A DNA stretch of 64,000 bases from Escherichia coli 042 (GTDB taxonomy: Bacteria; Pseudomonadota; Gammaproteobacteria; Enterobacterales; Enterobacteriaceae), in NCBI RefSeq assembly GCF_000027125.1, contig NC_017626.1; one strand, 5' to 3'. Made by a program: the position numbers and the translations under genes. The notes below the pieces were generated by a model. The model saw only the letters and a list, made by a program, of their open reading frames with translations, was not told the origin of the DNA and ran no database searches. This document shows, piece by piece, positions 9,985-10,134 of this stretch. Within the stretch, counting starts at the first letter, position 1. Each line of letters starts with the position of its first letter.

Positions 9985-10013
9985 CAGTAGCCCTGATATG
10001 GTCAGGGCTACTG
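9985..10013. terminator. 12-bp stem hairpin immediately downstream of ybiT (cagtagccctga-tatgg-tcagggctactg)
   Basis: Perfect inverted repeat read from the sequence 9 nt after the ybiT stop; no clear U-tract, so terminator function is uncertain. Confidence 0.4.
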
Positions 10014-10036
10014 AAACTGATGACAAATGCAAAATT

Positions 10037-10134
10037 GCCTGATGCGCTACGCTTATCAGGCCTGGCAGTACCTGTAATATATTGAATCTGCTGGACTTTG
10101 TAGGCCAGATAAGGCGTTAACACCGCATCAGGCA
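10037..10134. repeat. REP/BIME elements (two inverted REP-like units)
   Basis: gcctgatgcgctacgcttatcaggcc and taggccagataaggcgttaacaccgcatcaggc match the E. coli REP consensus pattern. Confidence 0.65.

Follow-up and report, generated by a model that had tools for sequence, protein, structure and literature searches.

A single-copy stem-loop and a BIME-1 element corresponding to REP79 between the convergent genes ybiT and ybiU of Escherichia coli 042

In Escherichia coli 042 the genes ybiT and ybiU converge on a gap of 239 bp, in which two distinct elements lie: a stem-loop that follows the ybiT stop codon (TAA, 9974-9976), and a pair of inverted REP units, that is, a BIME. The locus raises the question of what kind of BIME this is, whether the stem-loop forms part of it, and how the two transcripts that run towards each other here are ended and protected. 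The window analysed is a stretch of 64 kb from the genome of this strain, and the features discussed are collected in Table 1. Upon folding, the entire intergenic region stood well apart from shuffled sequences on both strands, with z = -6.3 for the + strand and z = -7.4 for the - strand.

Table 1. Position, strand and basis of the features discussed, in coordinates of the window.
Feature	Position	Strand	Basis
ybiT CDS (ABC-F family ATPase)	8384..9976	+	ORF list; identical RefSeq NZ_CP028192.1 annotation; K-12
Stem-loop, GC-rich, single-copy	9984..10014	none	Inverted repeat and folding
BIME left flanking inverted repeat, TACTGAAACTGATGACAAATGC	10009..10030	none	22 nt, 77% complementary to 10145-10166
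Left REP, short Z-type, TGCCTGATGCGCTACGCTTATCAGGCCTGG	10036..10065	+	Identity to published REP; pattern match
Long linker, L-type	10066..10099	none	Alignment with rhlE-ybiA and mdoH-yceK paralogs
IHF-like site, ATTCAATATATTA	10075..10087	-	12/13 vs WATCAANNNNTTR
Right REP, Y-type, GTAGGCCAGATAAGGCGTTAACACCGCATCAGGCA	10100..10134	+	31/35 vs published Y REP; pattern match
BIME right flanking inverted repeat, GCACTTGTCAGCAATCTGAGTA	10145..10166	none	Inverted repeat; paralog alignment
ybiU (DUF1479 protein), convergent with ybiT	10216..11475	-	ORF list; RefSeq NZ_CP028192.1
Partial REP, 3' half only, CGTCTTATCAGGCCTGG	16780..16796	+	Tail motif only, no matching head
Lone Y-type REP	53949..53983	+	32/35 vs published Y REP; pattern match

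The stem-loop begins 8 nt past the ybiT stop. Its arms, CAGTAGCCCTGA (9985-9996) and TCAGGGCTACTG (10002-10013), are 100% complementary and enclose the loop TATGG (9997-10001), so that the stem is perfect over 12 bp, or over 13 bp if the pair T9984-A10014 is included. The 44-nt stretch that contains it folds with -24.6 kcal/mol (z = -6.2) and none of 200 shuffled sequences folded equally well, which upholds the perfect 12-bp stem described after the ybiT stop in an earlier annotation made from the sequence alone (the first-pass annotation). No U-tract follows the stem on either strand, the adjacent sequence being AAACTGATGAC (+ strand) or ATAATAACTTAC (- strand), and a terminator scan called nothing at 9984-10014. 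Without a U-tract, the hairpin is not a canonical intrinsic terminator. Copy number was determined with queries of 58 nt around the hairpin. With the allele of the window, one place per genome was found in all 1242 matching genomes; with the allele of K-12, the median was likewise one place per genome (range 1-4, in 3641 genomes). Within the 64-kb window, a search at up to three mismatches returned one match and no second copy.

REP units were sought with a pattern of variable interior, GGCCDGATAAG-N(3-18)-CGCATCMGGC, which matched three times in the 64-kb window, at 10037-10062 (-), 10103-10133 (+) and 53952-53982 (+), against 0.00 matches expected from 100 shuffles. A fixed-spacing REP consensus had no match at up to three mismatches, because the interiors of the units differ in length. 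Both units downstream of ybiT are extragenic, lying between the coding sequences of ybiT and ybiU, and the pattern search found no further REP units in this gap. Up to GGCCT, the left unit is identical at 27/27 nt to the published REP GCCTGATGCGCTACGCTTATCAGGCCTACG, whereas agreement with the published Y-type REP amounts to 31/35 positions for the right unit and to 32/35 for the unit at 53949-53983 (Durrant et al. 2024). The foot tetranucleotide GTAG is present in the right unit (10100-10103) and degenerate in the left one, which has CTGG at 10062-10065 where K-12 has CTAC. In Rfam, the right unit gave a sub-threshold match to naRNA4, a REP-derived RNA family (25.8 bits vs a gathering threshold of 59.5); a snoRNA hit in the region was rejected as spurious. 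Both units thus align to known REP sequences, and their assignment to this family in the first-pass annotation stands, together with its reading of the pair as two REP units in opposite orientation forming a BIME. Its two other REP copies were recovered as well: the one placed at 53949-53985 is a full Y-type unit, and of the partial one placed near 16770-16797 only the 3' half of a REP is present.

The family to which the pair belongs is found throughout the species. A 401-nt query, run at megablast sensitivity to count the repeat family, had matches in 5425 of 5426 complete E. coli genomes, at 102,681 places in all; the median per genome was 15 and the maximum 38. For K-12, the literature gives 355 annotated REP elements and 584 REP units. 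In vitro, REPs are bound, cleaved and recombined by the REP-associated Y1 transposase (Ton-Hoang et al. 2012), and presumably it is this enzyme that spreads the family in vivo.

Judged by sequence and position, the pair (10038-10134 in the window) is the counterpart of REP79 of K-12 MG1655, located at 857617-857714 between the same convergent genes; label and position are those given in the supplement of Harris et al. (2026), and the RefSeq record of K-12 has no repeat features annotated over the ybiT-ybiU stretch. The two copies share locus and architecture, and apart from the hairpin their intergenic regions agree at nearly every base. They differ in that the left REP of the window ends in CTGG and not in CTACG (a 1-nt indel plus a substitution), in a small number of point changes within the linker and the Y unit, and in the adjacent hairpin, which is present as another allele.

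Two classes of BIME bear on the identity of the element. BIME-1 consists of a single REP pair (y and z1) with a well-conserved long L linker that frequently contains an IHF site, whereas BIME-2 has short S linkers and z2 and y units in tandem multiples (Ton-Hoang et al. 2012). The single inverted pair and the long, L-type linker, here of 34 nt, place the element in BIME-1 (RIP/RIB). With this class it has in common the inverted Y and short Z units, the conserved long linker with an IHF-like core, the presence of one copy per locus and the location at 3' ends of transcription units. The short Z unit would correspond to z1, on the published composition of BIME-1 rather than on a consensus comparison. 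The same arrangement recurs in paralogs between rhlE and ybiA (in two strains) and between mdoH and yceK, which consist of the left flank CTGATGACAAAYGCAAAA, a short Z REP, the linker, a Y REP and the right flank GCACTTGTCAGCAATYTGAG. The linker core AATATATTGAAT is nearly invariant in these paralogs, and is also conserved in E. albertii. Matches to the IHF site with at most one mismatch occur 1.2 times per kb in the window, which makes such a match weak when taken alone, but the site within the linker recurs in conserved form among the paralogs, and at the level of DNA the linker probably constitutes an IHF site. The rhlE-ybiA paralog also lies between convergent genes, and a short, unrelated GC hairpin (GCCGGGC TAT GCCCGGC) is located just past the rhlE stop (L089:690-720).

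The flanks at 10009-10030 and 10145-10166 are mutually inverted, and the repeat unit therefore spans approximately 150 bp (~10009-10166). The interval of 9985-10134 proposed in the first-pass annotation does hold both REPs, but the unit runs on past 10134 to ~10166 by way of its flanking inverted repeat. On the other side, the left flank overlaps the final bases of the 3' arm of the hairpin.

A different role for the pair, as a strong gyrase site of the BIME-2 type that organises chromosome topology, appears extremely improbable. Gyrase binding is reported for REPs in general, and Y is the type of unit at which gyrase is reported to cleave preferentially. However, gyrase affinity is reported to be higher for BIME-2 than for BIME-1, the enrichment of gyrase cleavage sites was reported for BIME-2, and the short linkers and tandem z2 and y units of that class contrast with the one pair, the 34-nt L-type linker and the short Z unit found here. 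Since the preference of gyrase is documented for BIME-2, the initial statement that BIMEs bind gyrase and IHF is narrowed for this BIME-1 to IHF, which would be its expected partner.

The hairpin adjoins this BIME-1 directly, is weakly complementary to both REPs in an inverted-repeat search, and in the window allele contains GTAG...CTAC in its arms. In this allele, its 5' arm GTAGCCCTGATA agrees with the REP foot GTAGGCCTGATA at 11/12 positions, which hints at a REP-derived origin. To regard it as a degenerate REP-derived unit, the truncated third unit of the BIME, is nonetheless an unlikely interpretation: the hairpin is present in one copy in every genome, its stem is perfect and lacks the REP bulge, and the K-12 allele agrees with the REP foot at just 8/12 positions. 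Moreover, one contig has the hairpin without the BIME, and the hairpin sequence is absent from the paralogous BIME-1 copies. The hairpin is a separate, non-repeated element outside the REP family. What the first-pass annotation requires by way of correction is the subtype of the BIME, the extent of the unit, the recognition of the hairpin as a separate element without a U-tract, and the end of the left REP, which is CTGG and not the canonical CTAC.

The hairpin occurs in E. coli as two alleles. The allele of the window was found in ~1176 genomes at 90% identity or more, including those of strain 536, ST131 and O127:H6, and is present in E. albertii as well; the K-12 allele, with the arms CCGTCACCCCGA and TCGGGGTGACGG, was found in ~3629 genomes. 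Between the two, 4 of the 12 stem pairs are changed, and each change is compensated on the opposite arm (A-U to C-G twice, G-C to A-U, and U-A to C-G), so that both alleles form perfect 12-bp stems, with -24.6 kcal/mol for the window and -25.3 kcal/mol for K-12. By our own estimate, 8 substitutions would fall into 4 complementary pairs by chance with a probability of ~8e-6. Across eight distinct sequences 97.9% of cells were paired, vs 25-47% in slid controls, a figure that effectively reflects one split between two alleles and not many independent events. Polymorphisms within each allele lie mostly in the loop. The E. coli variant ECCNB12-2 has one uncompensated stem mismatch, from which it follows that the stem is not absolutely constrained. 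Over 9977-10034, the window differs from the K-12-type haplotype at 14/58 nt, compared with 7/300 in the neighbouring 3' end of ybiT, and the hairpin region is a divergence hotspot between the two haplotypes. Because the allele of the window is shared with E. albertii, the polymorphism appears either to be older than the separation of the two species or to have passed between them by exchange.

In relatives, the position past ybiT remains structured. Escherichia whittamii has an unrelated hairpin at the same position (-25.1 kcal/mol), and the first 80 nt past ybiT fold with -20 kcal/mol or better in 72 of 80 Enterobacterales species, which indicates that structure after ybiT is kept while the sequence turns over. 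Within the first 200 nt of this flank in the same 80 species, genus-specific REP/BIME elements, ERIC-like elements, CCCTCTCCC...GGGAGAGGG palindromes or plain terminators are found. A rough count, for which the elements were classified by crude regular expressions only, gave 18 species with REP-like elements, 20 with ERIC-like elements, 15 with CCCTCTCCC palindromes and 9 with a hairpin followed by a U-tract. The 3' flank of ybiT looks like a recurrent landing site for small palindromic elements.

The compensated pairs may have arisen through a mutational process and not through selection on RNA structure, if changes in one arm were copied into its partner by intrastrand template switching. 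Quasipalindrome correction is established as a source of mutation. The palindrome is perfect in either allele, A-U to C-G accounts for two of the four changes and has no wobble intermediate, and the divergence is concentrated in the hairpin region, all of which would fit such copying. That E. whittamii has an unrelated but equally stable hairpin at this position argues, however, that structure itself has been retained, and the presence of some hairpin there in most other species and the location of within-allele polymorphisms mostly in the loop point in the same direction. On balance, we regard template switching as plausible though somewhat unlikely.

The two haplotypes also differ in their relation to IS621. 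The natural target of this IS110-family element, which encodes a bridge-RNA recombinase, is in REPs the 11-mer ATCAGGCCTAC with a CT core, written also ATCAGGCCT^AC (Durrant et al. 2024), and exactly this 11-mer is present in the left REP of K-12-type alleles. An IS621 copy is found in the left REP in ~1058 of 5426 complete E. coli genomes (about one fifth), with junctions at which ...TTATCAGGCCT is joined to TGTATT... and ...CAGTATCT is joined to ACGCAG..., both junctions containing the CT core. At 10055-10065 the window has ATCAGGCCTGG instead of ATCAGGCCTAC, so that the IS621 target in its left REP is lost; the - strand of the right REP reads ATCTGGCCTAC, with one mismatch to the target, at position 4. 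In E. albertii and in strains that lack ybiU, the CTGG variant of the left REP is linked to the hairpin allele of the window. An origin of CTGG as an excision scar of IS621 was considered and rejected, as the same variant is present in E. albertii and in the strains without ybiU; excision by IS110-family elements is, moreover, described as scarless. A tentative reading, and one that we consider rather unlikely as a whole, is that the hairpin may function independently as an element of the RNA 3' end, its structure kept by selection in the form of two old alleles with four compensated pairs between them (one in this strain, in B2-type strains such as 536 and ST131 and in E. albertii, the other in K-12-type strains), with the linked CTGG making the haplotype refractory to IS621.

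Several strains depart from the arrangement seen in the window. In strain 48 (L003:520-570), and also in O157:H7 (Z1768), a deletion of ~72 bp between ATCAGGC direct repeats of the two units has reduced the BIME to a single hybrid REP. In O26 RM8426 (L005:620-670), an inverted copy of the left short REP, GTAGGCCAGATAAGCGTAGCGCATCAGGCA, stands in place of the right Y-type REP, a pattern suggestive of conversion between the BIME's arms. The gene ybiU is absent from the E. coli sequences L007, L008 and L096 and from the E. albertii sequence L012; in these strains ybiV lies directly opposite ybiT, the hairpin and a BIME-1 copy of greater divergence, and the BIME thus borders a polymorphism in which ybiU is either present or absent. 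A contig labelled E. coli SCPM-O-B-8794 (L009:2254-2340) has a K-12-type hairpin but lacks the BIME and ~40 bp more, which shows that the BIME is dispensable. This contig was considered as a clean empty site of the BIME and rejected as such, since the ~190 bp that it lacks do not end at the flanking inverted repeats and no precise insertion footprint can be drawn from it.

Evidence on how the transcripts end comes from K-12. On the + strand, a Rho termination region has been mapped to 857953 (Rho score 6.97, p = 1e-9; Adams 2021), a position that lies antisense to ybiU, ~400 nt downstream of the ybiT stop. Transcripts of the + strand, presumably read-through from ybiT, therefore cross both the hairpin and the BIME under Rho inhibition. 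On the - strand, the supplement of Harris et al. (2026) gives an in vitro Rho-binding peak at 857669-857884 in the ybiU 3' UTR, which overlaps REP79 by 45 nt and maps to ~10089-10304 in the window; the ybiU 3' UTR extends into the BIME. No Term-seq 3' end is assigned to ybiT in the accessible supplements of Adams 2021. A literature search found nothing specific on terminators of ybiT or ybiU, and neither the Delihas review nor an IHF ChIP-seq paper has anything on the ybiT-ybiU locus.

As an alternative, the hairpin could serve as a Rho-independent and possibly bidirectional terminator for ybiT, ybiU or both. A strong GC-rich stem located right past a stop codon and between convergent genes resembles intrinsic terminators in this respect, and several other genera have true terminators of hairpin and U-tract at the same place (9/80 species by the crude count). 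Intrinsic terminators differ from the hairpin, however, in their U-tract, which is missing here on both strands, and the terminator scan was silent. In K-12, furthermore, + strand transcription past this point is Rho-dependent. We consider an intrinsic terminator very unlikely.

The explanation that best accounts for the locus as a whole, and which we hold to be highly probable, combines the unique stem-loop as a barrier at the RNA 3' end with the BIME-1 corresponding to REP79 and with Rho termination between the convergent genes. Rho would end both convergent transcripts within the BIME or beyond it, after which they would be trimmed back to stable structures. In RNA, the hairpin would be a barrier to 3'-to-5' exonucleases and most likely defines and protects the 3' end of the ybiT mRNA, acting as the last barrier after Rho termination farther downstream. 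The palindromes of the BIME, transcribed into the 3' UTRs of both genes, would provide extra blocks to exonucleases and could assist attenuation by Rho in either direction. For both strands, Rho dependence is taken over from K-12, the source of all the Rho data. We infer that these data apply to strain 042, that the ybiT and ybiU mRNAs are stabilised and that the linker is occupied by IHF.

Such a role agrees with what is reported for the family. REPs in 3' UTRs attenuate transcription, in part via Rho, and block 3'-to-5' decay, although both effects are strongly context-dependent; pairs of convergent genes separated by a REP are reported to have higher expression. The statement in the first-pass annotation that such elements stabilise upstream mRNA accordingly has literature behind it, but the reported effect of REPs on mRNA half-life depends on context and is not uniform. 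Among known systems, the locus resembles the REP stabilisers and Rho attenuators REP325 in yjdMN and the malE-malF REPs, in that palindromes without a U-tract lie in a 3' UTR and that binding of, or termination by, Rho is reported in K-12 at or near the element. REP325 differs in having 12 units, vs two here, and the likeness of ybiT/ybiU to these systems is known from sequence and from the K-12 Rho data.

Other structured or repeated sequences were observed elsewhere in the window. Near the lone Y-type REP at 53949-53983, a hairpin followed by a T-run, ACGGACAACT...AGTTGTCCGTATTCATT, is located at 53897-53925, ~25 nt upstream, so that a terminator and a REP stand side by side in one 3' region. 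The sRNA RybB at 41354-41432 (-) is the only Rfam family above threshold in the window (105 bits vs a gathering threshold of 40). Copies of a 32-nt direct-repeat family, CCGCATNAGNTTTCCGGCGGTCAGCGNCAGCG, are found at 20441-20472, 21326-21357 and 48807-48838. These repeats probably encode a conserved ABC-transporter signature motif rather than constitute a DNA element.

REP and BIME elements have been described since the 1980s. The BIME between ybiT and ybiU is an already known and catalogued member of this family, and as such routine; because the family is long described and this copy is catalogued as REP79, it is of little importance in itself. The modest additions made here are the compensated, two-allele hairpin and the allele without an IS621 target. 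The two hairpin alleles constitute a natural compensatory-mutation experiment for stabilisers of 3' ends, and the CTAC allele, with an IS621 target, and the CTGG allele, with none, could be a ready-made control for studies of targeting by bridge recombinases. Depending on the strain, the same BIME has been lost, collapsed, converted or invaded by IS621. The locus is a compact example of how REP and BIME elements shape a 3' intergenic region, next to a hairpin that is conserved in structure and variable in sequence and with transcript ends that in K-12 are Rho-dependent on both strands.
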